A stretch of DNA of 64,000 bases from a virus. The stretch spans positions 1 to 64,000 of the IMG/VR virus record IMGVR_UViG_3300046323_000360; one strand, written 5' to 3'. Both the position numbers and the translations under genes were made by a program. Below, one piece after another: positions 36,281 through 55,650 of the stretch; the stretch's first letter is position 1; every line of letters begins with the position of its first letter. The notes beneath the pieces are model-generated. The model was not told the origin of the DNA, ran no database searches, and saw only the letters and a list, made by a program, of their open reading frames with translations.

Positions 36281-36963
36281 CTATCCAATTGGTGCGTCTA
36301 GAACATCTCCAAATGGATTCATAGAATCTGGATTGAATTCCGTTGGTTCTATATATGGTTTTAGTTCAATACCATCTTCTGATTTTGTAGGTTCAGGTTT
36401 CTCTATTACTGCATATGCATAATCTTTTTCATACATTGCTTTATATAGCCTGATTCTACGTCTTTCAGTTATGATGGCATGTTCCTGGGAGATAAAACTA
36501 TTGTCTTCTTCAAAGAAATAATGAATAACATCTAACATGTCTGATGCTTCCATCTGTAGTAGATGTATATCGTTCACTATTGCCTTTCCGTTAACGTAGT
36601 GCCAGAGGTCTATTGCCCAGTCGATTAGTCCTCTGGCTGCTGATTTGGGCGGTTAGTATACTCTGACATTAGCCACGATACAATCTCGCTTAGGGTCTCA
36701 ACAGGAACTACTTTGTCCTTATCTTTAACTAGAGCATCAAAACGCTCGAAGCTCTCATTAATAAGTACATGAGAGAAAAAATCATTGATCATGCGCAAAG
36801 ATCCGACGGAATCACTCTCATCATTTGCAGCCGAGATAAGTTCAATAAGGAATCTGCCTTGAATAGCCTTTACACAAAAAAACTCTTCACCATGTATCTT
36901 GAAGGAGATAGGCTCTACGTTTTCTTGATCTGGTCCAGAACCAAAGTCTTTGAATCTAGTCAT
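36281..36963 (-). CDS. Tail assembly chaperones G (36963-36625) and GT (-1 frameshift into 36577-36281)
   Basis: Slippery C_CCA_AAT at 36649-36643. The -1 frame (PKSAARGLIDWAIDLWHYVNGKAIVNDIH...) is open into the 98-aa ORF. Position is upstream of the tape measure. Confidence 0.85.
36601..36649 (-). promoter_or_regulatory. -1 programmed ribosomal frameshift signal (tail chaperone)
   Basis: CCCAAAT, then a 5-nt spacer, then a stem GCCAGAGG...CCTCTGGC (36637-36601). Confidence 0.85.
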
Positions 36964-43724: not shown

Positions 43725-46700
43725 TTAGGTAAGGAGTCGGAGTAGCGTGCTCATCTCAGACTGAACTTCACCCTGAGAGTACACATCTGCACCCGACATA
43801 TAGGACTTAAGACTTGCAGTTGCAATGTCCGCATCCTTTTTACCGATCTTGTCTTCGACTCGGGAAATCATGCCTTTGATGAGATCCTTAAGTCCAGCAG
43901 GAAGATCGCTAAACCTTAGTTTGTCTGCGTCTTTTCCAAATGGAAGAGGCAGGTTAGAGATAACAGTTCCAAGTTCCTTGGCTGTAGCTCTTACATTTTC
44001 TAGAGATCTAGGGTTGAGAGCCTTAGAGTCAAGACGATCAATCATTTCTAGAAGCTTTCCGCTAGCCTTAGCTGAGTCCACGTAGTTACCAGCAAACTCT
44101 AGATTCTCTGCTGTCTGAACTTTATTCAGTGCATCCTGAAGACCTGCAACACCTAGATCTTGTCTTAGGCGAGCAAGAACCTTACGGTATTTACCGCGAG
44201 CATCACGAGGCTGAGTTACAGGTGTGTACTTAGTACGACCATTCTTATCATAAGCATCCTGAGCAGTAGTCTTACCAGCTTTGATATCTTCAGCTAGCTT
44301 AATCTCGTCTGCGGTCTGCTTATCTGCCTCAGCCTTAGCGTCTGCAAGTTTCTTTAGTTCTTCCTCAGAAATGGTCCCCTTAGCATCAGCAGAGTTGGCG
44401 AATTCACTGATTGATGCAATAATTGCACGCATCTCGTCTAGTGCAGAAGAAGCTTCCATAGATGAAGCAGACTTCCATTCTTCAGGAACTAGTACAGCAA
44501 GCTTTAGTGCACGAGCACGCTTACGTATGTGAGCGCGAACCTTTGCACGATCTTTAGGGTTAGAACGTCCATATGCCTTAATAGCATTCTTCAAGTCCTT
44601 CTCGTTACGGATTGGGTAAGAGCCATCTGGAAGCGCCGCACCTTCCTCGGCAAGAGCTTTACGCTCTTGCTCGGAGATAGTAGCTAGTTCAGCAATAGCT
44701 GATGCAACTAGAGCACGCTCACGAAGAGACTCTACCTGAGCAGATGCAGCAACAGTCTTTGGCTTCTTCCACTCTTCTGGAATTAAGTCAGCAACTTTGA
44801 GGGCACGAGCACGCTTTACAATGTGCTTACGAGCAGCTTCTTTATCCTTTGCACGTCCATAAGCGTGGATTGCAGCCTTTATATCATCCTTGGTCTTAAT
44901 AGGGAAAGAACCATCTGGAAGAGCCCAGCCCTTAGAGGCATACTCTTCACGCTTTGCACGTGGGATGTAGCCAAACTCGGCTTCTGCACGCTGTAGAGCA
45001 GCTTCGGTAATTGCACCGAGTTCACTCATTTTCTGAGCCTTTAGAGATAGAGACATAACTGCTTCGCTCTTAAGAACTGCCATATCGTAGGCACCAGCTG
45101 CAACAAGAGCCATAACCTTACCAGAAGCTACCATTGCACGGGCAATCGGGAATCCTGGAACGTTAACCTGGCAAACTGCAACTAGCTCGAGTGAGCCACC
45201 GATTGGACGCCAGTCACCTGAAGGAGCAGATGCACGAAGTGCACGAATCTGAGCCTCAGTTACGTCTGGGCGTAGCGAGCCTGCTACCCAAATACCGTAG
45301 TCATCTTCACCAGCGTGAACATCAGCAATTGCAGATGCGGTATCGTCGTAGTGCTTTGCTGCCTGCTCGGCTGAAGCGTGTAGGGAAGCGTGACCACCAG
45401 CAAGAGTCAGCTGACCTACTGGAACATCCTTACCTTCTGCAGTACGAACAACACCAGTGTGGAAGTAAGCGTACTTGCTCTTTGAGCGAGGTGGGCGGGT
45501 TGCACGAGGCATACCAATGTGGTTAACGTGCCAAGCAGCAATGTGACCAAAGATGTATCCATTAGTGTCAATGGTTAGCGGGGTAGCCTTGGTTAAAGCT
45601 GGCTTCTGGAACCACTCGCTAGGAGGAGTTACAGGGATTTCTGACTCTAAAAATCCAGAAGCAGTTAGAGCTTCGGCTGCTACGAACGAGTCAACAGACT
45701 CTTCGTAAATTCCATCTTGCGGAATCAATTCTTCCTCCTGATTAGCCGACTCCCCGTCGATAAAAATAGTGCATTCCTGGAATGCAGGCTTAGCTACAAT
45801 TGTAGCAGCCATTACACGGGCATGATTTATGATGAGCTTCTGTTTACTGATTTCATCAGACTTTTCAGATGCTTCTGGTTCATATTCTTTGGCTTCAAAC
45901 TGATCTAGGTCAGCAGATACTCCACGAATAAACCCGTTTCGTACTAGACGCTCTGCCTCTCGACCGTAAGGTCCAGTATCAAATACACCATAAGCATTTC
46001 CGATACCATCTTCAGTACGCTCCATGTGGTCAATTCGACCAACAACTACAGAACCATTGTGACCTTCACCAGTTTTGATCTGCCATAGCAGAGGAAGTGG
46101 TAGATCACGAACTTCAATAGCATCCTTCTTGAACTTACGTCCATCCCCAGATTCCATTGTCTCGGGTATTAGAAGAGGAATTTTGAAACTAGCTCCATTA
46201 GAGTTTCCAGATGCTACTATTCCTAGTACACGCTCGCGTGCAAAATCTGCCTTAGCAGTAAGTGCTGCTGCAGCAATCATTGCAGTATCCATCTCTTCTT
46301 CAGAGTTAAATAGGGAGAAGTATGCTTTGTTATTGTTTTTCCCCGGGTTAAATTTACTACCAGTGTAGACACCAGTAACTTCTTTATGGCGCAACTGACA
46401 ATATCCCTTAGCGCGAACTCCCATGTATTTCGTTAGGTGTCGCACGCAACGAGTCCAATCTCCTGGAGTGCCCCAGCGGATCTTTAGTGCGCCTTCGCCT
46501 CTAGTCCAGTAGTGGCGAAGCTCTTCAGCATTACCCTTGTTACGATCTAAACCACCAGCAGCAATGAGTGCAATGAACTCATCATCCGCGCACTGAGAGA
46601 TTTCTTCCATTGCTTCGATAATCTCAAAGTCTGGCTCCCACTCGTTATCGTAGATATCATCGTGCTCTGCTTGAATATCTTCTACAGGAGTAAGTAGATG

Positions 46701-48899
46701 CTTGTCCTCTATGTAGCCAGGAACTCCAGTATCTTCTGCCCATACTTCTTCCATGATGTATTCATCATTAGAGAAGTTACCGCGGTCGCGCTTTGCGTGA
46801 GTAGCAGTGTAGTAGCCGAGAGCATCCTTGTGGCGAAGCTGGCAATATCCCTTGGCACGTGGGCCCATATATTTGGCTAGGTGCTTAACGCAACGCTTCC
46901 AGTCGCCAGGGGTTCCCCAGCGAATCTTAGCAGCTCCCTCTCCACGTACCCAGTAGCGGCGAAGTTTCTCTGCATTTCCACGGTTACGGTCTAGACCACC
47001 GGCAGCTGTTAAAGCTTCGATAGGGTCTACCTCTAGAAATGAAAGGAATACCTGAGCAAACAGACTTGCAGCGATAGGGGTCTTAATTCCATCTACCTGC
47101 TTCAGTATGTCGTCAAGAATCTCATTAGTAATCATGACTACAGGAGGTGGAGTGGCAGACTGCATATCTCTAGCAATCTGAGGATCCTCTACCCATTTCT
47201 TATCTTGTCTCTTGAAAGTTGCAGGAGCAGTGCTGGTAGCACTAGCAGGAATAAGAGCGACCAAATCCATAACTGCAGCAGGGTCTTCAGGAGATACGAT
47301 AGCAAAATACTTTGGCGGGACATCAGTAGTTTCTGGGGTCAGAGCAGTATCTGACCCGGCAGCAATAATTGAAAAATTACCTTTAAACTTGGTAATTCCC
47401 CAGCGAGAAGTAGCTTTAGCAGCATCGGCGGCACTACTAGGCTTATAAGACTTACGCATGTCTGAAACATACTTAGTCCAGTCGGTAAGCATGGTATGAA
47501 TTTGCTTAGCATCCATCGGAGGAAGAGTTCCAGGAATATGTGCTTTTGGCTGATTAATTGGAGTGCGAGGTTCTCCAATAATTCCAGAAAGATCTATAAC
47601 GTTTGGCTCATTAGACACCTGAGTAGCATTGGGTCTAGATGCATTGGTATTTCCCTCTGGATAAAGAAATTTACCATCAACATTGACTTCATTACCAGAA
47701 TCTAGTTTTACCTTTACGGTCCCATCTGGATTGGTGCCTACTACAGTACCCTTGCCTTTAGTTTGGTCGTTTCCAACAGCAACTCGATCGTTACTCTTGA
47801 TCCACCAGCCTTTAGCATTTCTAGACTGCTTCTGTACGTTCTGAGATCTCTCGTCTGGCGTGTAGCCATCAGACGGAGCAGCATTAGGGTCGGAACCAGT
47901 AGAAGTAGGGTTAGCAAACTCGTTTGCCGATGCCATAAGAACTAGGTCTAGGATATCTATATCTTCAGAGATAATCCCCTGAGCCATAAGCTCGGCTTCA
48001 TCAGCATCAATGGTGTCGATGCTTACAGCCGAGTAAGGGTCTGAAGCAAGTCTTCCAGCAATGATTACAGCAGATTCAGGGTCAATGATGAAATAGTCAT
48101 AATCTATCTGCTGATCTGAGTCAGCATCAAGAGCAGCATCTAGTGACCAGATATTGGAGTCAATGTCACCTAGGTTGTCCCAGGCATTGTCATCCCAAAG
48201 GGCAACAGCTCCGTTTATGTCTACCTTATATAGTCGATCAATTCGACCATCGTTAAGTCTAACTCTGGCTACAAACTCTGGACCGTAGGTCTCATCAAGT
48301 TCATATGCCTCATCAAATGCTCTAAGTGCATCTATGTTAGGTCCGCTAGCATCGGCAGTTAGTGCGTTCTCACGCTCTACTATCTTCTTAGCCCAACGCC
48401 ATCCAGCATCTCCACCCCAAAGTGCCCAAGCGATACGCCCGTTAGATGGGAAGTTATCTTCTCCAGGCTCCCAGCCTTTACCCTTCTTGTCAACTTCGTG
48501 ACGAGGGAAATACTTAGCAACATGTCTAAGCTTTTCAATACCAATCTGCCCGCCTTTAGCAAGAGTGCGAGCAGTATTCATACCTACCGGGGTTCCGCCG
48601 CGGTGGTGCTCCTTGTGCCACTCCAAAGCCTTCTTTGCTTCAGCCTGGACGCCACTAGGAATGGTATACATTCTGCTACCAGAAGCAGAAATAGGAGTGA
48701 GAGCATTGAATGATTTCTCGACTAGCTCCATAGTAGAGGTAGAGAACTCGATTGCAGCCTGAGACCATGTTCTCTTGCTAGAAAGGTGCTCTAGGTCACC
48801 AGTCTCGACTATTAGGTTGAGATTGATGTCTACAACAATCCCCTGACCGTCTAGCCCAAAAAGGGCAAGGTTGCTGGAGTGTCCAGAGTATTCAAACAT
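43725..48899 (-). CDS. Giant multidomain capsid maturation protease fusion (1724 aa)
   Basis: Protease-like core (ESGDGR.F...LPLPLLWQ...GHNGSVVVGRID; GVSADLD; IFGHIAAW; SGDWR) upstream of the capsid gene, flanked by two pairs of internal repeats. Confidence 0.8.
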   Translation of the reverse strand: MFEYSGHSSNLALFGLDGQGIVVDINLNLIVETGDLEHLSSKRTWSQAAIEFSTSTMELVEKSFNALTPISASGSRMYTIPSGVQAEAKKALEWHKEHHRGGTPVGMNTARTLAKGGQIGIEKLRHVAKYFPRHEVDKKGKGWEPGEDNFPSNGRIAWALWGGDAGWRWAKKIVERENALTADASGPNIDALRAFDEAYELDETYGPEFVARVRLNDGRIDRLYKVDINGAVALWDDNAWDNLGDIDSNIWSLDAALDADSDQQIDYDYFIIDPESAVIIAGRLASDPYSAVSIDTIDADEAELMAQGIISEDIDILDLVLMASANEFANPTSTGSDPNAAPSDGYTPDERSQNVQKQSRNAKGWWIKSNDRVAVGNDQTKGKGTVVGTNPDGTVKVKLDSGNEVNVDGKFLYPEGNTNASRPNATQVSNEPNVIDLSGIIGEPRTPINQPKAHIPGTLPPMDAKQIHTMLTDWTKYVSDMRKSYKPSSAADAAKATSRWGITKFKGNFSIIAAGSDTALTPETTDVPPKYFAIVSPEDPAAVMDLVALIPASATSTAPATFKRQDKKWVEDPQIARDMQSATPPPVVMITNEILDDILKQVDGIKTPIAASLFAQVFLSFLEVDPIEALTAAGGLDRNRGNAEKLRRYWVRGEGAAKIRWGTPGDWKRCVKHLAKYMGPRAKGYCQLRHKDALGYYTATHAKRDRGNFSNDEYIMEEVWAEDTGVPGYIEDKHLLTPVEDIQAEHDDIYDNEWEPDFEIIEAMEEISQCADDEFIALIAAGGLDRNKGNAEELRHYWTRGEGALKIRWGTPGDWTRCVRHLTKYMGVRAKGYCQLRHKEVTGVYTGSKFNPGKNNNKAYFSLFNSEEEMDTAMIAAAALTAKADFARERVLGIVASGNSNGASFKIPLLIPETMESGDGRKFKKDAIEVRDLPLPLLWQIKTGEGHNGSVVVGRIDHMERTEDGIGNAYGVFDTGPYGREAERLVRNGFIRGVSADLDQFEAKEYEPEASEKSDEISKQKLIINHARVMAATIVAKPAFQECTIFIDGESANQEEELIPQDGIYEESVDSFVAAEALTASGFLESEIPVTPPSEWFQKPALTKATPLTIDTNGYIFGHIAAWHVNHIGMPRATRPPRSKSKYAYFHTGVVRTAEGKDVPVGQLTLAGGHASLHASAEQAAKHYDDTASAIADVHAGEDDYGIWVAGSLRPDVTEAQIRALRASAPSGDWRPIGGSLELVAVCQVNVPGFPIARAMVASGKVMALVAAGAYDMAVLKSEAVMSLSLKAQKMSELGAITEAALQRAEAEFGYIPRAKREEYASKGWALPDGSFPIKTKDDIKAAIHAYGRAKDKEAARKHIVKRARALKVADLIPEEWKKPKTVAASAQVESLRERALVASAIAELATISEQERKALAEEGAALPDGSYPIRNEKDLKNAIKAYGRSNPKDRAKVRAHIRKRARALKLAVLVPEEWKSASSMEASSALDEMRAIIASISEFANSADAKGTISEEELKKLADAKAEADKQTADEIKLAEDIKAGKTTAQDAYDKNGRTKYTPVTQPRDARGKYRKVLARLRQDLGVAGLQDALNKVQTAENLEFAGNYVDSAKASGKLLEMIDRLDSKALNPRSLENVRATAKELGTVISNLPLPFGKDADKLRFSDLPAGLKDLIKGMISRVEDKIGKKDADIATASLKSYMSGADVYSQGEVQSEMSTLLRLLT

Positions 48900-49341: not shown

Positions 49342-49818
49342 TTATTGATTATTGTTATTATTGACAGTTATATTATTGATATCCCTAAAAACAATTTCTT
49401 TGGCAGCCTCTGGGACCGTTCCAAGCATTAGTTTTAGATCAGAATCAGATGCTGTCTTTAGATCTAGATATTTCTTTATATGCTTACCAGACTCTAAATC
49501 ATCATATGAATATGAAATCATAGTCTTATAGCTACGAATATTTCGATTAGCTACCCTAGCTTTTAGTCGATCTTCTATTCTAGATATGAATTTAATAAAC
49601 TCGTCTGAAAACTGCAGCTCTTCAGCAGAATTCTTAAATTCTATTTGCTTTGCTTCATCTGTAATTAAGTCTTTAAACTTATCTGATGTGCCATAGAAGT
49701 AGAAATTGTCTGCATGCTTGTCCCAGGTTGCGCCGTCAGAGCTGTAGTAGTCAGACTGGTCAGCATTTAGCAGGGCACTACTGACTCTGGCTACGCTTAT
49801 TACTTTTGATGTGCTCAT
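49342..49818 (-). CDS. Hypothetical protein; candidate immunity/antitoxin for the upstream effector
   Basis: Starts 2 nt after the stop of the ART-ending ORF; AT-rich. The functional call is positional only. Confidence 0.55.
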   Translation of the reverse strand: MSTSKVISVARVSSALLNADQSDYYSSDGATWDKHADNFYFYGTSDKFKDLITDEAKQIEFKNSAEELQFSDEFIKFISRIEDRLKARVANRNIRSYKTMISYSYDDLESGKHIKKYLDLKTASDSDLKLMLGTVPEAAKEIVFRDINNITVNNNNNQ

Positions 49819-49819
49819 G

Positions 49820-52609
49820 TTATAAGATGTCTTTCTTTCTAACTTGAAGAATACCTCTATTTAATACTACAAAATAGCTTACTCCACCGCTGCCGCCATC
49901 TACTTCTATTGCATCGTATCCGGCTAGTGCATAGTAACTAGATGCTTTATTTATAGGTAGATCCGAGACTAACCCTCTAGCTCTGGAAATAACATCTGAA
50001 CTAGCTTCATCCGTGCCTGGATCTAATTCATTAGCGATCAATGATCGCATCATCTGATCTAGGGCATCCCTAAGTACAGATTCATTAGGCATATTTGAAT
50101 CTTTAGAAAACCCTAATCTTCCTCTACCTAGAACTGCGACTTTAGCCTTAGGATCTATTGCCATCTCTAGTATTACGCTTCCGTATCCTCTAGCTTCTGC
50201 AGATGTGCCGGCAGTATAAGTACCATCACCGTACGCAGTGGTAGTCGAGTAGTATGATGGAGTTGATCCAGTTGCAAATGCCCTGTGTAGATCTTTCCCG
50301 GAATAGTGAGTACCGTCAGTTGTAGCTGCATTTACTCCACGGAATACCGTAGACCATCCTGGAGTAAAATCATCCACTAGCTGAGGCTTATTACTACCAA
50401 ATCCAAGAATTCTTCCGAGCCTTTGAGCTGTTCTAGATCCGAATATAGTGCCTGGTCCATATTTAGTTCTATCCATTTCAGGATAGTTAGCCGAGTTATT
50501 CTCTGCTAGAACTGTGTCTATCAATGACAATGCAGCTTGACCAAAGGCATCCTTGAACTTCTGTCTCCAAGCAGTACTTTTCTTACCCTTAGCATATCCA
50601 TAAGACTCTAGTAGATTCTCAAACCAAGCTGCTCCATTTCCGGATGCAACCATCTGAGCAAATAACTCCGCAAAATTCTCTGCAGGGCTAGCTGCTCCTC
50701 TAGTGCTTACATCTGGAACAGGATTATCAGTTGCTGATTTATCACTAGAGGTACTAGCCTTGGCCTGCACCTGATCACCTGTTAGACCGTATCTTCCAAG
50801 AATATAATCTCTTCTTTTTTGAAGAGTACCCTTTAGAGAACTAGCTACTGTAGGGTCAGTAATTATCGAGTCAACTATTGTAGAGATATCAGAATCAGCT
50901 AGTTTTAGAAGACGCTTAGCACTGTCAGTCTGGTCCTGCTGAGACATCGAGCTAAATAAGCGTACTGCGCCAGAGTTTGTACCGCCGCTAGTGAATGTAC
51001 CTAGCTCGGTTACTGAGTCTCCAAAACTACTACCCTTTGCATCTCCCCTAGCTCGGTAGAGTAGTGCTCCTCCAACATCAATTCTAACAGGGTTTCCATT
51101 TGCGTCGGTGACAATATTATTGTTATACGGAGCGTCCCAGTTGCCTAGGAATGCATCTACAGCAAAACCCTCCTGAACTTTCTTCAGGTAGGCTGCATCA
51201 TTATTTACCTTGGCATCAAAGTTTTCTTGGACTCCTGCAACATACTCTGCATATGTTGCAGCTCTTCCATTTATATTTGCAGGAAGTATATCTGCAGTAT
51301 CTATACCAAGAAACTTATATAGAGCTGATGCAAGTCTCTCATTTTGACCATGAAGCTCTGTCTTTTGGAATTTTGCATATACTTTAGTTCCAGTAGTAGG
51401 GTCTTGCCATGTTCCACCTGGGTTTGATCCCTGAGCACCTCCAACATTATTCCATGAAGATAGGTCAGTCGGTGTTGACTGGGCAGCCGCTATATTATTA
51501 GCATCATCACTAGGTCCAGCTGTATTTAGAGTAGAGTCTGCTACAGATGTAGATGAAGATTCTGGTGCAGCATTGTAGAATTTGTGAAGATCTGAACCAA
51601 TCCTCTTTGAATTCTGAGAGCCATAGAGCTTCTCGGATAGTTGATGACCTACCTCGTGAGCTATGAAATGTTTATAAGCCTCTTGCTTATTGCTAAAGGA
51701 TGTAGACCAATATCCAGGATGCCCCTTTGCAATTGATATCTGGTCAGATACCTTATCCACATATATGTGAATTGCATCTGCGTTATCGTAGGTGAATCCA
51801 ATGGTATTGCCATCTACACCAGAAATTCCAGCAGGTAAGGCGCTACTATTGTCGAGAAGGTGTACTCGTACTTTTTCTTTGTAAAGCCCGCCTTCTCTTA
51901 GAGCGCCAAGAGCAGCAGAGGTGGCAGCAAAGTCTTCATGAGAAGCTTTAGGACTTAGTTTTCCAGTTCCATCTACAGCCATATGAACAACAACAATGTT
52001 GCCCGTATTTGCATCAGTTACTTCGATGTGAGCCGTTTTTTGGTCTGATACTTTACTCTTAAGGCTATCTATAGTGGTTAGCTGAGCTTTATATAAGGCT
52101 TCTGGGCGTGATACACCATTATTTGTGAAAGCATCGAATATGTCATTCTTTATGGAATCAGCATGAGCCTTAGCACCCTTAATATCCCATGATCCGGAAA
52201 CTCCAGCATAGAGAGGTCTAAGATCGGGAAGAGCATCTCTGTAGTCTATAATAGCAGCGTCATATGATTGAGATATATTTACTGGGGTAGTTCCAGTTCT
52301 AGCCTTATTACGGAACCTAGCGTTAATCATAGCTACACTCTTAGGATCTAGAAATCCATCTGAAACGTAGTTATGAGGTGTATAAGAATTAGCTGGATCC
52401 AAACTATCTAGCTGGAAATTCATCAAATCAATGATGGCATTCTTATATGCTTCGGTATCGTTATTTTGTCTAGCAAGGCGGGTAGCCTGTATTAGTTCAC
52501 TTAGCTTAGCGCTATCGTGCCCTGCAGGAATATTACTGTATACATTATCTTCTAAATCAGACAAAGATTTCCAAGAAGAATCTAGCTCAACTCTAGATGG
52601 GGCTGACAC
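49820..52609 (-). CDS. Polyvalent effector segment: zincin metallopeptidase + HipA/PI3-4K-like kinase + ADP-ribosyltransferase-like domain (probably expressed as a -1 frameshift extension)
   Basis: Peptidase HEVGH ... ENFAELF; kinase GSNPGG/YAKF/NERLAS/GNWD/RIDVGG; ART VFRGV/YGDGTY/GYDAI/YFVVLNR. Frame is open up to the slip site at 52747, and there is no good SD before the GTG at 52609. Confidence 0.75.
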   Translation of the reverse strand: MSAPSRVELDSSWKSLSDLEDNVYSNIPAGHDSAKLSELIQATRLARQNNDTEAYKNAIIDLMNFQLDSLDPANSYTPHNYVSDGFLDPKSVAMINARFRNKARTGTTPVNISQSYDAAIIDYRDALPDLRPLYAGVSGSWDIKGAKAHADSIKNDIFDAFTNNGVSRPEALYKAQLTTIDSLKSKVSDQKTAHIEVTDANTGNIVVVHMAVDGTGKLSPKASHEDFAATSAALGALREGGLYKEKVRVHLLDNSSALPAGISGVDGNTIGFTYDNADAIHIYVDKVSDQISIAKGHPGYWSTSFSNKQEAYKHFIAHEVGHQLSEKLYGSQNSKRIGSDLHKFYNAAPESSSTSVADSTLNTAGPSDDANNIAAAQSTPTDLSSWNNVGGAQGSNPGGTWQDPTTGTKVYAKFQKTELHGQNERLASALYKFLGIDTADILPANINGRAATYAEYVAGVQENFDAKVNNDAAYLKKVQEGFAVDAFLGNWDAPYNNNIVTDANGNPVRIDVGGALLYRARGDAKGSSFGDSVTELGTFTSGGTNSGAVRLFSSMSQQDQTDSAKRLLKLADSDISTIVDSIITDPTVASSLKGTLQKRRDYILGRYGLTGDQVQAKASTSSDKSATDNPVPDVSTRGAASPAENFAELFAQMVASGNGAAWFENLLESYGYAKGKKSTAWRQKFKDAFGQAALSLIDTVLAENNSANYPEMDRTKYGPGTIFGSRTAQRLGRILGFGSNKPQLVDDFTPGWSTVFRGVNAATTDGTHYSGKDLHRAFATGSTPSYYSTTTAYGDGTYTAGTSAEARGYGSVILEMAIDPKAKVAVLGRGRLGFSKDSNMPNESVLRDALDQMMRSLIANELDPGTDEASSDVISRARGLVSDLPINKASSYYALAGYDAIEVDGGSGGVSYFVVLNRGILQVRKKDIL

Positions 52610-52695
52610 AGTAGTTGCACTAGAGCCGTCAGATCCCTTAACCTTGAGCTGACGCAGTCCAGATAAGTCGAACTGTCTTCCAGGTGGCGTGCTCG

Positions 52696-52747
52696 GGGCT
52701 GGAGACCCTGGGGTAGCCCCAGGACCCGCAGCCCTATTTATTTTGGG
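52696..52747 (-). promoter_or_regulatory. -1 programmed ribosomal frameshift signal in head-module gene
   Basis: C_CCA_AAA (52747-52741), then TAAATA, then the hairpin GGGCTGCGGGTCCTGGGG-CTA-CCCCAGGGTCTCCAGCCC. Confidence 0.85.
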
Positions 52748-55650
52748 CTGCGGTTCTCGCTCTTCTCTACAACTTCAACCTGCTCATTACCATTTTCATC
52801 GATATAGAAGACAGCTAATCCAGGGGCTCCACCATCAGCAGCAGGCACCTCTTGAGTCTCAACTACGACTCCTAGGTAGTCTCCATTTGAGCCATAAAAA
52901 CTATCATTAGGCTGCAACTGGGTAACGTTTCCATCTACAGGAGCTGCTGGAGTAGCATCTGCAGCAGGAGTATTATCCACTGCTGGAGTAGCATCTGCAG
53001 CAGGGGTACCTGTATTTACTACAGGAGTTGCAGTGCTGCTATCACTAGTCTGAGTGCCACTAGAGTTAGCTGGCTTACCATTGCTTCCAAGGTATGGCTG
53101 GCTAGCATTAGGGTTAGCTGCATTAGGGTCAATAGGAGTGGTATCAGATGGCTTCTGCTCAGCAGGGGTTTCACCAGAACGCTTCTGGTTGAAGACATCT
53201 AGTGCTGGACCTAGCAGTGCTTTTCTTAGGGCTAGCTTCTCGTCCAGTTTTGCATTTGCAGTGTAGTTAGTTAGGTCTGGATTCCCGAACTCTGAGGTTG
53301 GACCAGCAGGGAACATATTACGAGTCTGTAGTAGATCTACAGAAGTACCATCAGCAAACTGCACACGAACTGTGTCGTGATACTGACCATTCTTACCGCT
53401 ACCAGCATTGAATGCAATAATCTGACCTACAGAGTGGTCTTTCTCATTAGGGAAGTAGACTACCTTATCGCCAAGCTTGGCAACAGTATTTCCATCTCCA
53501 TAGACATACGGGGTTCTGTTCACATCGCGAAGATCAACTTTGTTGCTCTTCATATACATGTCTAGAAGGTTTGCATAGGTGTGGAATCCCTTAGCATTAC
53601 TCTGACCAGCAAATCTAGATACAATACCCTTACGTAAGGTGTCAGTCAGAAGTTTACGTGAATCAGGGCTATCTGGCATTCTTCCAAGCAGCTGAGTAAT
53701 TCGCCACTTCATATCTTCGTAGTTCTTAGACTCTAGAGCATCCCAGAATGGTGATACCTGACCACGAAGTACGTTACCGAACTGGTAGCGTGGCTCACCG
53801 TCTGGACCAATACCAGTCTGCACCATGCTCATGTTAAGCTTACGGTCTGTTCCTTCTAGGAACTTACTAATATTTTCTTCAGGTGTTAGGAATGCCCAAC
53901 CGAACTTGTCGCTTCCCTTGCGGAAATACTTTAGACGTTGATTTAGGTCTTTATTAGGGCCAAAGTAAGTAGAGATTTCACGAGTAATCTTAGTTCCAGG
54001 TCTAGTCTCACCTAGAAGATGACCGCGCATCGTAAGAAGACCATTTCTCTTAGCAAAGATGCCAGCAAATGAGTCCTTATAGTCAGCTAGTTGGAAGTCC
54101 TTAACTTCACCAGTGGCTGCATCAGTAAATTTGTAGTGCTGTACAAACTGGTTTCCGTAAGTCCTAGATAGTCCCATCTCGAAGGCATACTTCTTACCAG
54201 TTACAGGGTCAGTCCACTCACTGCGCTCAAGGATGATCTTGTTGTTATCTCCCTGAACCTTAGCATCAGGGAACTTCTCTAGAATTGCGTTTACAATCGC
54301 ATTAGGATCCTGAATAATCTTCTTAGGGTTATTAGGGTCGCGAACTGGTTTACCGTTCTCGTCTAGTAGGGGGGTGTTTAGTTCTAGGTCGCGGAGAGCA
54401 TTATCATCTAGACCATTGGTGTTTAGGGCTACATCTCCACCGTCATCAATGCGACCCTTAGCCTTAGCAATCTCTGCTGCACTCTTCTTCTCTACTGGAG
54501 GGATAGTAGGGGCGGCCTTCTTAGGTGCAACAACAGTAGGGGTCTTCTTAGGGCTAGTTGACTTACCAAAGTGAGCCTTAACCTGGTCAAGAACTGCCTT
54601 AGCGTCATCTGAAGAAACATCTTCACCGTTGTCTAGTCTAGAGACTAGATCATCGAAGCTCTGCTTAACAGCAGGGTCAATGTTAGGGTCATTTGCAACC
54701 TGGTCAGCAAAGTTGTCAATCTGATCAACCTGAACCTTAGTAACTGACTTGGCTGCAGGAGTTGAAGCTGGAGCAGGAGCAGCCTTCTTAGGAGCAACAT
54801 TAAAGTTAGTGTTTGATGCAGCAATAGTCTTTGCTGTTGTACCATCTGCCTTAGTGAAGGTGATCTCAGAGCGACCGTTTCCTGCATCTTTGCTGGTTAC
54901 ATAAGTAACTATGTTGCCATTCTTGTCAACAATCTGGTCACCAGGATTAAGGTCAATAAGCTTCTTTGTCTTGGCTCCGCCATCGCTCGGCCCCTGCGCT
55001 GCATTGATTACTATATCAACGGTAGGAGTTCCACCGTTCATAGCGTCGTTCCATGCATTGGCTATTGCCTGATCATGGGAGTCACCTGGTGCAGCTGGTG
55101 TAGCTGGTGCAGGAGAACCATTAGCATCTGCAGCATCTCTAGCTTTACCTTCTGCAGAGTCTTTGTACTGAGACATCTCTTTACCCTCAGGGGTAGCAGT
55201 CCCGCCATCAGCTAGGTTTAGGTCACCAGGTGTGATGTCAGCAGTCTCTGTAGTTGCAAGATCCTGAGGCACAAGACCTCCAACATCATTACCAAACTTA
55301 TCTGCATTAGGGTCAATACCCTGAGACTTTAGATATTCAGCCGATAGCTGAGCCTTGATGGATTCCAAGCTATCAGAGTTAACGGCATAGACGCCATCTT
55401 TGAGATTAGGATTACCCTTAATGAGGATACGAGCCTGGTCTGCGCTACCAGTTGAACCAACAACCTTACCAATCGCGCTGAACTCTTCAACGGTTCCATC
55501 GGCACGGAGCTTCTTGAATAGAGCACGGGCTTCGGCACCCATCTCCATCCAACGCTTCTTGTGGTCACGAGGCTGGTGACGCCAGAAGCCCTTGTTAGCA
55601 CCATCGTTAAATCCGATACCCGCTACGATTGGGTCAAGTTCGTTGGACAT
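52738..55650 (-). CDS. Large putative internal virion/head protein (carrier of the frameshift effector)
   Basis: 970 aa between the portal/dps genes and the protease; GAGG SD; N-terminal QPRDHKKRWMEMG motif; Pro/Ala-rich linkers and SH3/KOW-like modules. Confidence 0.7.
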   Translation of the reverse strand: MSNELDPIVAGIGFNDGANKGFWRHQPRDHKKRWMEMGAEARALFKKLRADGTVEEFSAIGKVVGSTGSADQARILIKGNPNLKDGVYAVNSDSLESIKAQLSAEYLKSQGIDPNADKFGNDVGGLVPQDLATTETADITPGDLNLADGGTATPEGKEMSQYKDSAEGKARDAADANGSPAPATPAAPGDSHDQAIANAWNDAMNGGTPTVDIVINAAQGPSDGGAKTKKLIDLNPGDQIVDKNGNIVTYVTSKDAGNGRSEITFTKADGTTAKTIAASNTNFNVAPKKAAPAPASTPAAKSVTKVQVDQIDNFADQVANDPNIDPAVKQSFDDLVSRLDNGEDVSSDDAKAVLDQVKAHFGKSTSPKKTPTVVAPKKAAPTIPPVEKKSAAEIAKAKGRIDDGGDVALNTNGLDDNALRDLELNTPLLDENGKPVRDPNNPKKIIQDPNAIVNAILEKFPDAKVQGDNNKIILERSEWTDPVTGKKYAFEMGLSRTYGNQFVQHYKFTDAATGEVKDFQLADYKDSFAGIFAKRNGLLTMRGHLLGETRPGTKITREISTYFGPNKDLNQRLKYFRKGSDKFGWAFLTPEENISKFLEGTDRKLNMSMVQTGIGPDGEPRYQFGNVLRGQVSPFWDALESKNYEDMKWRITQLLGRMPDSPDSRKLLTDTLRKGIVSRFAGQSNAKGFHTYANLLDMYMKSNKVDLRDVNRTPYVYGDGNTVAKLGDKVVYFPNEKDHSVGQIIAFNAGSGKNGQYHDTVRVQFADGTSVDLLQTRNMFPAGPTSEFGNPDLTNYTANAKLDEKLALRKALLGPALDVFNQKRSGETPAEQKPSDTTPIDPNAANPNASQPYLGSNGKPANSSGTQTSDSSTATPVVNTGTPAADATPAVDNTPAADATPAAPVDGNVTQLQPNDSFYGSNGDYLGVVVETQEVPAADGGAPGLAVFYIDENGNEQVEVVEKSENRSPK

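Follow-up and report, generated by a model that had tools for sequence, protein, structure and literature searches.

What do ribosomes make of the end of a 970-amino-acid (aa) gene in the head module of an uncultured virus, where a slippery heptamer directly precedes the stop codon and another long frame stays open beyond it? This gene, here called A, and the extension frame that follows it, here called B, lie in the window analysed, a stretch of 64,000 nucleotides (nt) which comprises positions 1 to 64,000 of the IMG/VR record IMGVR_UViG_3300046323_000360, i.e. the first 64 kb of a 96-kb viral contig with a CheckV completeness of 57%. The answer we favour is that gene A and the following frame are a single gene recoded by programmed ribosomal frameshifting (PRF), with A (970 aa) and A-B (1943 aa) as its predicted products, and that A-B would carry enzymes as a cargo that is packaged and delivered; we put the probability of this whole statement at roughly 0.68.

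The junction between gene A and the -1 frame

The elements that make up the junction are the following:

55650-52738, minus strand: gene A, 970 aa, the proposed carrier
52747-52741, minus strand: C_CCA_AAA, the slippery heptamer as read in the 0 frame, with a shift from CCA to CCC in the P site and from AAA to AAA in the A site
52738-52740, minus strand: 0-frame stop codon TAA, directly 3' of the heptamer and part of the 6-nt spacer
52696-52734, minus strand: putative stimulatory hairpin, from the fold and the alignment of relatives
49820-52741, minus strand: -1 frame extension B, 973 codons and a stop, made only as A-B fusion under the PRF model
52595-52741, minus strand: post-slip linker, B residues 1-49, rich in Pro, Ala and Ser and predicted to be disordered (predicted local distance difference test score, pLDDT, below 50)

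Gene A ends in CGC AGC CCA AAA TAA, with the heptamer in the X_XXY_YYZ register, and downstream of the spacer an outer stem formed by GGGCTG (52734-52729) and CAGCCC (52701-52696) encloses an inner CCTGGGG/CCCCAGG stem. Folded alone, this hairpin has a free energy of -30.5 kcal/mol and a z-score of -3.4 against shuffled sequences at a spacer of 6 nt, and it is also the centroid structure of a larger fold; no Rfam family was found at the junction. The -1 frame runs without a stop for 973 residues (52741 to 49823), beginning with K-I-N-R-A-A-G-P-G, and the predicted A-B fusion is 970 + 973 = 1943 aa long. Its first ATG, GTG or TTG codon is the GTG at 52609, 44 codons past the slip, and the window sequence has nothing resembling a Shine-Dalgarno (SD) sequence ahead of the junction or ahead of this start. 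These features, i.e. the position and register of the heptamer, the hairpin six nt further on, the length of the fusion and an extension frame with no start of its own near the junction, had been described in an earlier sequence-only reading of the window, and all were verified. In-frame CCCAAAN heptamers occur seven times in window open reading frames (ORFs) of at least 150 aa, and the one in gene A is the only one to abut a stop codon. With C_CCA_AAA, the stop as the next codon in the A site and a hairpin 6 nt on, a fraction of the ribosomes would slip by -1 and read a further 973 codons.

An alternative 9-bp pairing between CCGCAGCCC and GGGCTGCGG (52729-52756, minus strand), which encloses both the heptamer and the stop codon, is present in the minimum free energy fold. 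Its upstream arm reads CCGCGGCCC, CCGCGTCCC or CCGCCTCCC in relatives, changes which are uncompensated, and the pairing thus looks contig-specific.

The junction was compared among relatives of the window. A representative-library search with A gave 116 homologues, and all 14 aligned A protein homologues (33-82% identity to A) end in R-x-P-K, the window protein itself ending in R-S-P-K. Searches of viral contigs with gene A alone, and of metagenome contigs with the B alignment, returned no related loci; a protein-guided IMG/VR scan yielded 68 loci, in 46 of which (window included) the contig reaches the stop codon of gene A. In 34/46 loci this stop is preceded, at 0 or 3 nt, by an in-frame CCCAAAA or AAAAAAA, and each of the 34 continues with a -1 ORF that is 386-1638 aa long or is cut off by the contig end. 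A first stem starts 4-8 nt past the heptamer in 25 of the 26 unique junctions (z from -1.0 to -5.4). The sequence-only reading had also proposed checking related contigs for a conserved heptamer and stem with varying domains downstream, and this is what the loci display. Twelve aligned loci share the invariant block CCCAAAATA(A/G)AT(A/C)GGGCTG and its partner CAGCCC, and within the clade of the window the outer stem GGGCUG/CAGCCC does not vary; the inner stem CCUGGGG/CCCCAGG has an entirely different sequence and length among relatives, with pairing kept. The codon preceding CCA is AGC, GGC, GTC or CTC (Ser, Gly, Val or Leu), its final base always being C, and a search with the exact 19-nt signature gave 14 viral contigs, 12 of which coincide with loci known from the gene A scan.

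The Arg codon CGC that stands two codons ahead of the heptamer (52751-52753, minus strand) shows no nucleotide change among the 12 aligned loci, and the Arg of R-x-P-K is invariant in all 14 proteins. It could act as an upstream stimulator, through a nascent-peptide effect, or as a structural residue.

The conservation of the signal bears directly on whether the frame change is an artefact, with A-B as one ordinary ORF interrupted by an assembly or sequencing indel, or B as the remnant of a decaying gene. The window does come from a metagenomic contig that is 57% complete, but the same frame change is found at the same heptamer in 33 other loci, from many samples and down to ~30% protein identity, and B is under purifying selection with its catalytic motifs intact. 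A local indel error is very unlikely because the signal is conserved across so many assemblies, and to the artefact explanation as a whole we give next to no credence.

Another reading places the shift in the RNA, by slippage of the polymerase on the A run, and not on the ribosome. It finds some support in a subgroup (CCAAAAAAA) with 7 A in L024, L032, L039 and L061, which approaches a run length prone to polymerase slippage, but the run is only 4 A long in most loci, the window among them, and so too short for efficient RNA polymerase slippage. A hairpin at this distance (6 nt), together with a strict codon register, is moreover characteristic of ribosomal -1 PRF, and the chance that transcription accounts for the frame change is very slim.

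A further possibility is that B is a separate protein, translated by termination-reinitiation or non-canonical initiation, in which case the hairpin and the conserved sequence would serve the coupling and not frameshifting. The stop codon of A overlaps the start of the open -1 frame, which across loci is open for 3-51 codons upstream of the slip, so that a start close to the junction would be feasible in geometric terms. Against this stands the lack of any ATG, GTG or TTG until 16-130 codons after the slip in the signal-bearing loci, together with the lack of an SD-like sequence before the junction. Conservation at synonymous positions is that of an in-register X_XXY_YYZ heptamer and a hairpin at the canonical 4-8 nt, and natural in-frame A-B fusions exist, as described below. 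We consider a separate B improbable, if a little less so than slippage of the polymerase.

The stretch between the slip and the first canonical start bears the marks of coding sequence. Substitutions at codon positions 1/2/3 number 22/18/50 between L004 and L014 (83 codons), and 28/21/50 between L014 and L067 (84 codons). The peptide FDLSGLR (FDLSxLR), located in the post-slip linker upstream of the first canonical start, is conserved in 12 loci, and GPGRPRTTPIDPSW is a second post-slip peptide motif conserved in relatives. This excess of substitutions at third codon positions and the conserved peptide motifs together indicate that the start-free stretch is coding. The closest protein homologue, P0005, keeps RQFDLSGLRQ, which is upstream of the GTG of the window, and all homologues in protein databases have been called from an internal start codon. 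Both FDLSxLR and GPGRPRTTPIDPSW sit in an otherwise disordered linker just past the slip (e.g. in L004, L006, L012, L014 and L067), and might be a processing or docking site.

The 12 loci (of 46) without the signal have a longer gene A, of 735-1486 aa. In ten of these the C-terminal part of gene A shows homology to B extensions, with E from 1e-13 to 1e-24, and two more have a weak match of about 1e-5; examples are residues 1106-1444 of A in L020, which match residues 133-446 of B in L033, and residues 1182-1481 of A in L051, which match residues 59-378 of B in L032. From these natural in-frame fusions it is clear that A and B belong to one polypeptide. Taken together, the sequence comparisons make -1 PRF by far the best reading of the junction, one that we hold with high confidence, and B is best described as a phage-type polyvalent module that lacks an independent start.

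Domains of the extension and the gene that follows it

The predicted domains of B, and the small gene directly after it, are located as follows:

51572-52279, minus strand: zincin metallopeptidase, N-terminal part (B ~155-390), with HEVGH at 51658-51644
50777-51529, minus strand: atypical protein-kinase-like domain (B ~405-655), an insert that follows the HExxH helix of the zincin and precedes its Glu helix
50666-50680, minus strand: ENFAE, third zinc-ligand helix of the split zincin, with E688, F690, A691 and E692 invariant
49823-50389, minus strand: C-terminal domain (B ~785-973), probably of the ADP-ribosyltransferase (ART) superfamily
49342-49818, minus strand: 158-aa gene, conserved neighbour directly after B

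Searches of Pfam and PHROGs with B gave no family, no PolyVal or ART model matching the window protein, and no meaningful match came from the PDB when its sequence profiles were searched with the B alignment. The AlphaFold2 model of B, made from 13 aligned homologues (mean pLDDT 75), was used for a structure search, and this identified a lethal-factor/PPEP-like zincin, with matches reaching model residue ~717, and a CtkA/HipA/PI4K-like kinase. B contains HEVGH (362-366) and ENFAE (688-692), i.e. the HExxH and downstream Glu helix of a zincin, as well as the motifs FRG, YGDGTY and VVLNR, and most of these residues are invariant among homologues. The kinase domain combines a protein-kinase-like fold with a Lys, a catalytic Asp/Asn and a metal-binding Asp, its motif residues being K457, E468, D536, N542 and D555. 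The structure search bears out both the zincin and the HipA/PI3-4K-like kinase that had been proposed from motifs, and the polypeptide has at least two unrelated enzymatic domains (zincin and kinase by fold, with the ART-like domain by features and weak Pfam matches). The kinase module recurs in portal-, MuF- and ART-fused phage proteins.

An ART-like domain had been proposed as the third enzyme, and here the outcome was mixed. The FRG, YGDGTY and VVLNR motifs are present, 24 of the 30 named ESM Atlas feature hits of the last ~190 residues are to PF18760 ART-PolyVal (score 0.93), and PF00644 PARP matches 3/13 B homologues (best E 3.4e-4), but no Pfam model matches the window protein itself. 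The invariant residues of the domain are R801, G838, G840, Y842, E905, Y956 and R962, and we describe it as ART-superfamily-like.

The composition of the extension varies between loci, with accessory domains that include PF03496 ART and RNase T (L025), RNase T (L035) and Peptidase_Mx1/ATLF (L032). Every complete extension has an HExxH 307-440 residues past the slip, except for L035 where it is at 925, and the L058 extension has a second HExxH at 1426. The presence of HExxH in every complete extension means that the zincin is constant and the other enzymes are add-ons; the cassette past the slip, proposed to be swappable, is not freely so, since variation is limited to the add-ons.

The same proposal had cast the 158-aa gene as the immunity partner of the cassette, and this did not survive comparison with the other loci. 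Pfam and PHROGs gave no family for the 158-aa protein. Its homologues follow B in all loci of the clade of the window, with or without a kinase, and in L004, L006, L008, L010, L014, L036 and L067 the gene is split into ORFs of ~95 aa and ~62 aa. A profile of the C-terminal half matches the small ORF after other extension types (L005 1e-15, L066 2e-15, L033 1e-13, L032 5e-5), and no co-variation of the small downstream gene with the toxin domain was found. A role in immunity is unsupported because the gene tracks the locus and not the toxin domain; a small opening is left by the N-terminal half, which occurs only in the clade that has the ART-like domain, a clade that is also a phylogenetic group. 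The 158-aa gene fuses the two units that are separate in the relatives named, and the C-terminal unit has the conserved motif D-L-S..SDEEL..PEA..E-I-V-Y-R-E.

The proposed carrier, its genomic setting and the possible role of A-B

The model of A (pLDDT 64.6) has several small KOW/Tudor/SH3-like beta-barrels, helical segments and long disordered linkers of Pro, Ala and Thr. Its N-terminal domain (~residues 1-170, GANKGFW..QPRD) is conserved and heads many proteins of 900-4068 aa, among them the 2235-aa gp82 of Microbacterium phage Pumpernickel, which is encoded two ORFs after the portal and weakly matches PI3/PI4-kinase towards its C-terminus. Such a pairing of a conserved N-terminal handle and variable tails of enzymes would be expected of a capsid-loading domain. 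No family was found for A in Pfam and PHROGs, nor in Pfam for six long A-family homologues, and tblastn with the whole of A gave no match in cultured phages, only the N-terminal domain matching Microbacterium phages. The suggestion that A is a MuF-type carrier (PF04233) was rejected, given the lack of a Pfam or PHROG match and an hhalign probability of 0.1% against the MuF-bearing protein P0012.

In two cultured phages a single giant ORF annotated as hypothetical follows the portal, of 3289 aa in Actinomycetia phage DSL-LC01 (L071 18357-28226) and of 2235 aa in Pumpernickel (L072 15966-22673). Within the DSL-LC01 protein is the closest cultured match to the kinase module (42% identity). The end of Pumpernickel gp82 was considered as a candidate PRF site and rejected, as it is an ordinary ATGA-type overlap.

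The head module is on the minus strand in the order terminase, portal, Dps-like gene, A, B, 158-aa gene, 121-aa gene, 1724-aa gene and major capsid protein, so that A-B lies among portal and terminase head genes, a setting of the polyvalent type. The larger neighbours are:

61239-58792, minus strand: large terminase with a LAGLIDADG intein-like insert
58092-56323, minus strand: portal
56321-55785, minus strand: Dps/ferritin-like gene (PF00210, E 1e-16)
43725-48899, minus strand: 1724-aa gene with prohead-protease-like regions

With the portals of DSL-LC01 and Pumpernickel the window portal shares 70% and 65% identity, respectively, and the virus is therefore an actinophage relative; its G+C content (~45%) would suit a low-GC actinobacterial host. 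In the terminase insert, Pfam LAGLIDADG_3 matches residues 364-423, consistent with an intein. The position of the Dps/ferritin-like gene between portal and gene A is unusual, and L002 has a 150-aa ORF in the same position. In relatives, at least two separate genes take the place of the 1724-aa ORF: a 905-aa gene followed by TAA-ATG and the next gene in L033, a 989-aa gene and then a gene with a GTG start and an AGGAG of its own in L002, and ORFs of 891 + 194 aa in L019. A second PRF site at the end of the L002 989-aa gene was rejected in view of the AGGAG and GTG of the next gene, and a BLASTP comparison for a loading motif common to gene A and the 1724-aa protein gave nothing significant.

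How might such a product be used? In the mechanism we favour, A would be an abundant internal protein of the head module and the major product, with its N-terminal domain serving as the handle for incorporation into the capsid, and the minor A-B would enter the prohead via its A part, as Gag-Pol does with Gag. The enzymes would thus be packaged at a set low dose, delivered with the DNA and modify host proteins. As the sole constant module of the extension, the zincin would probably process the fusion or attack host targets, and the kinase and ART-like domain would modify host targets after injection; lineages without the signal would make the same protein as a plain in-frame fusion. Judging from the position of the gene and by analogy, most copies of the carrier would be unarmed, and a small fixed fraction armed, packaged and injected. 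For the packaged-cargo role of A-B taken by itself we see even odds.

The main rival accepts the frameshift as real and places A and A-B elsewhere, acting in the infected cell or in prohead assembly and being absent from, or cleaved out of, the virion; A could for instance be a scaffold-like protein whose minor protease/kinase form processes head components. Such a role in assembly would fit the zincin peptidase being the only module constant in all extensions, the location of the genes between the portal and the giant gene that contains the protease, the small barrels and disordered linkers of A, which are like those of many scaffolding and decoration proteins, and the small gene after B, which is kept whatever the extension type, as an assembly partner would be. 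Set against this, a prohead-protease-like region is already present in the 1724-aa gene, and the HipA/CtkA-like kinase, the ART-like domain, PF03496 ART and RNase T are typical of host-directed polyvalent effectors (PMC5512222). On balance we think the assembly role unlikely, yet it deserves to be taken seriously.

Several points weigh against the recoded gene with packaged cargo that we prefer. Six further in-frame CCCAAAN heptamers occur in the long ORFs of the window, and the heptamer alone is thus not diagnostic. The -1 PRF reading is a prediction from sequence, and A-B being the minor product is an assumption. The ART label derives from language-model features and from weak PARP matches in three homologues, not in the window protein, and tblastn with the central domain of A gave no match in cultured phages.

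Relation to known recoding and effector systems

The closest functional analogy to A-B is Gag/Gag-Pol, as far as the comparison can be carried. In retroviruses and totiviruses, Gag-Pol is a minority trans-frame fusion with enzymes that include a protease, and it is thought to enter the particle via the N-terminal part it shares with Gag. Gene A likewise ends at a slippery heptamer with a predicted stimulatory RNA structure, and the enzymes would be on the trans-frame fusion; the two systems differ in that there is no homology, that the window belongs to a double-stranded DNA tailed phage, that its enzymes are of host-directed effector types and not replication enzymes, and that in the phage both incorporation and the ratio of products are predictions.

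Within tailed phages, the -1 PRF of the tail assembly chaperones G/GT was reportedly described by Xu, Hendrix and Duda in 2004, and capsid or tail extensions by PRF include 10A/10B of T7 and the major head protein of phage A2. As in these cases, the -1 signal at the end of gene A closes a gene of the late structural module and would give a short major and a long minor product. In contrast to them, A-B is located after the portal and not before the tape measure, and gains ~1000 aa of enzymes where they gain a small structural domain. The window has a chaperone site of its own:

36643-36649, minus strand: C_CCA_AAT, the second -1 slip site, located in the tail assembly chaperone pair and read by eye

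Here a GCCAGAGG/CCTCTGGC stem follows 5 nt downstream (element 36625-36649, minus strand), and the -1 frame runs into a 98-aa ORF upstream of the tape measure gene; the near-identical signal that had been noted at the tail chaperone is thus present, stem included.

Packaged effectors are also known, T4 Alt being an ADP-ribosyltransferase that is packaged in the head and injected with the DNA, and which has an N-terminal capsid-targeting part. Alt is a single ORF of the R-S-E Alt/VIP2 clade, whereas the C-terminal domain in the window weakly resembles ART-PolyVal/PARP-like families. MuF polymorphic toxins and the MuF-VIP2 ART fusions of actinophages resemble A-B in having a head-module carrier with a C-terminal toxin-like domain; unlike MuF toxins, gene A is not MuF, and the adjoining small gene does not follow one cassette in the way an immunity gene should. 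Pairs of MuF-like and VIP2 ART genes are among the unconfirmed predicted frameshifts that might be real according to the PRFect paper (PMC10885494).

By family, A-B is closest to the phage-type polyvalent proteins, in which one polypeptide holds disparate enzymatic domains with a zincin metallopeptidase as the hub, recognised by HExxH and a downstream Glu helix with variable inserts noted between both helices (PMC5512222). A-B shares with them the zincin hub, a kinase domain and a location among portal and terminase late genes, and its putative ART domain would be a further likeness, but its enzymes would be reached only via a conserved -1 frameshift from a separate carrier ORF. The polyvalent paper also describes a kinase clade that lacks the C-terminal subdomain, whereas the kinase of B is CtkA/HipA/PI4K-like and retains a helical C-lobe; the word frameshift is absent from that paper (Iyer, Burroughs, Anand, de Souza and Aravind 2017, PMC5512222).

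Full-text literature searches that paired frameshifting with polyvalent proteins, with MuF toxins or with virion ARTs turned up nothing of relevance, and we found no description of a Gag/Gag-Pol-like arrangement, as predicted here, for phage effector proteins. That an uncultured actinophage-like clade uses such PRF, at the end of an abundant internal head protein, to set the capsid copy number of a processing zincin and variable host-directed enzymes (kinase, ARTs, exonuclease) for injection is a possibility to which we give slightly less than even odds.

To our knowledge, conserved recoding in tailed phages essentially consists of tail chaperones and a few capsid or tail decorations, and in dozens of independent viral contigs the same recoding appears here to join a large set of enzymes to a protein of the head module. 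Its use for injected enzymes would, if true, make a third conserved class of phage PRF next to the tail chaperones and the capsid and tail extensions. The kinase-inside-zincin architecture is also an addition to the polyvalent protein repertoire. If A-B is packaged, the arrangement would explain how a phage can dose packaged effectors that might harm the cell that makes them, would demonstrate that gene callers cut such proteins apart, and would offer a natural series of PRF and in-frame-fused forms, with and without the kinase, in which the benefit of the frameshift could be tested.

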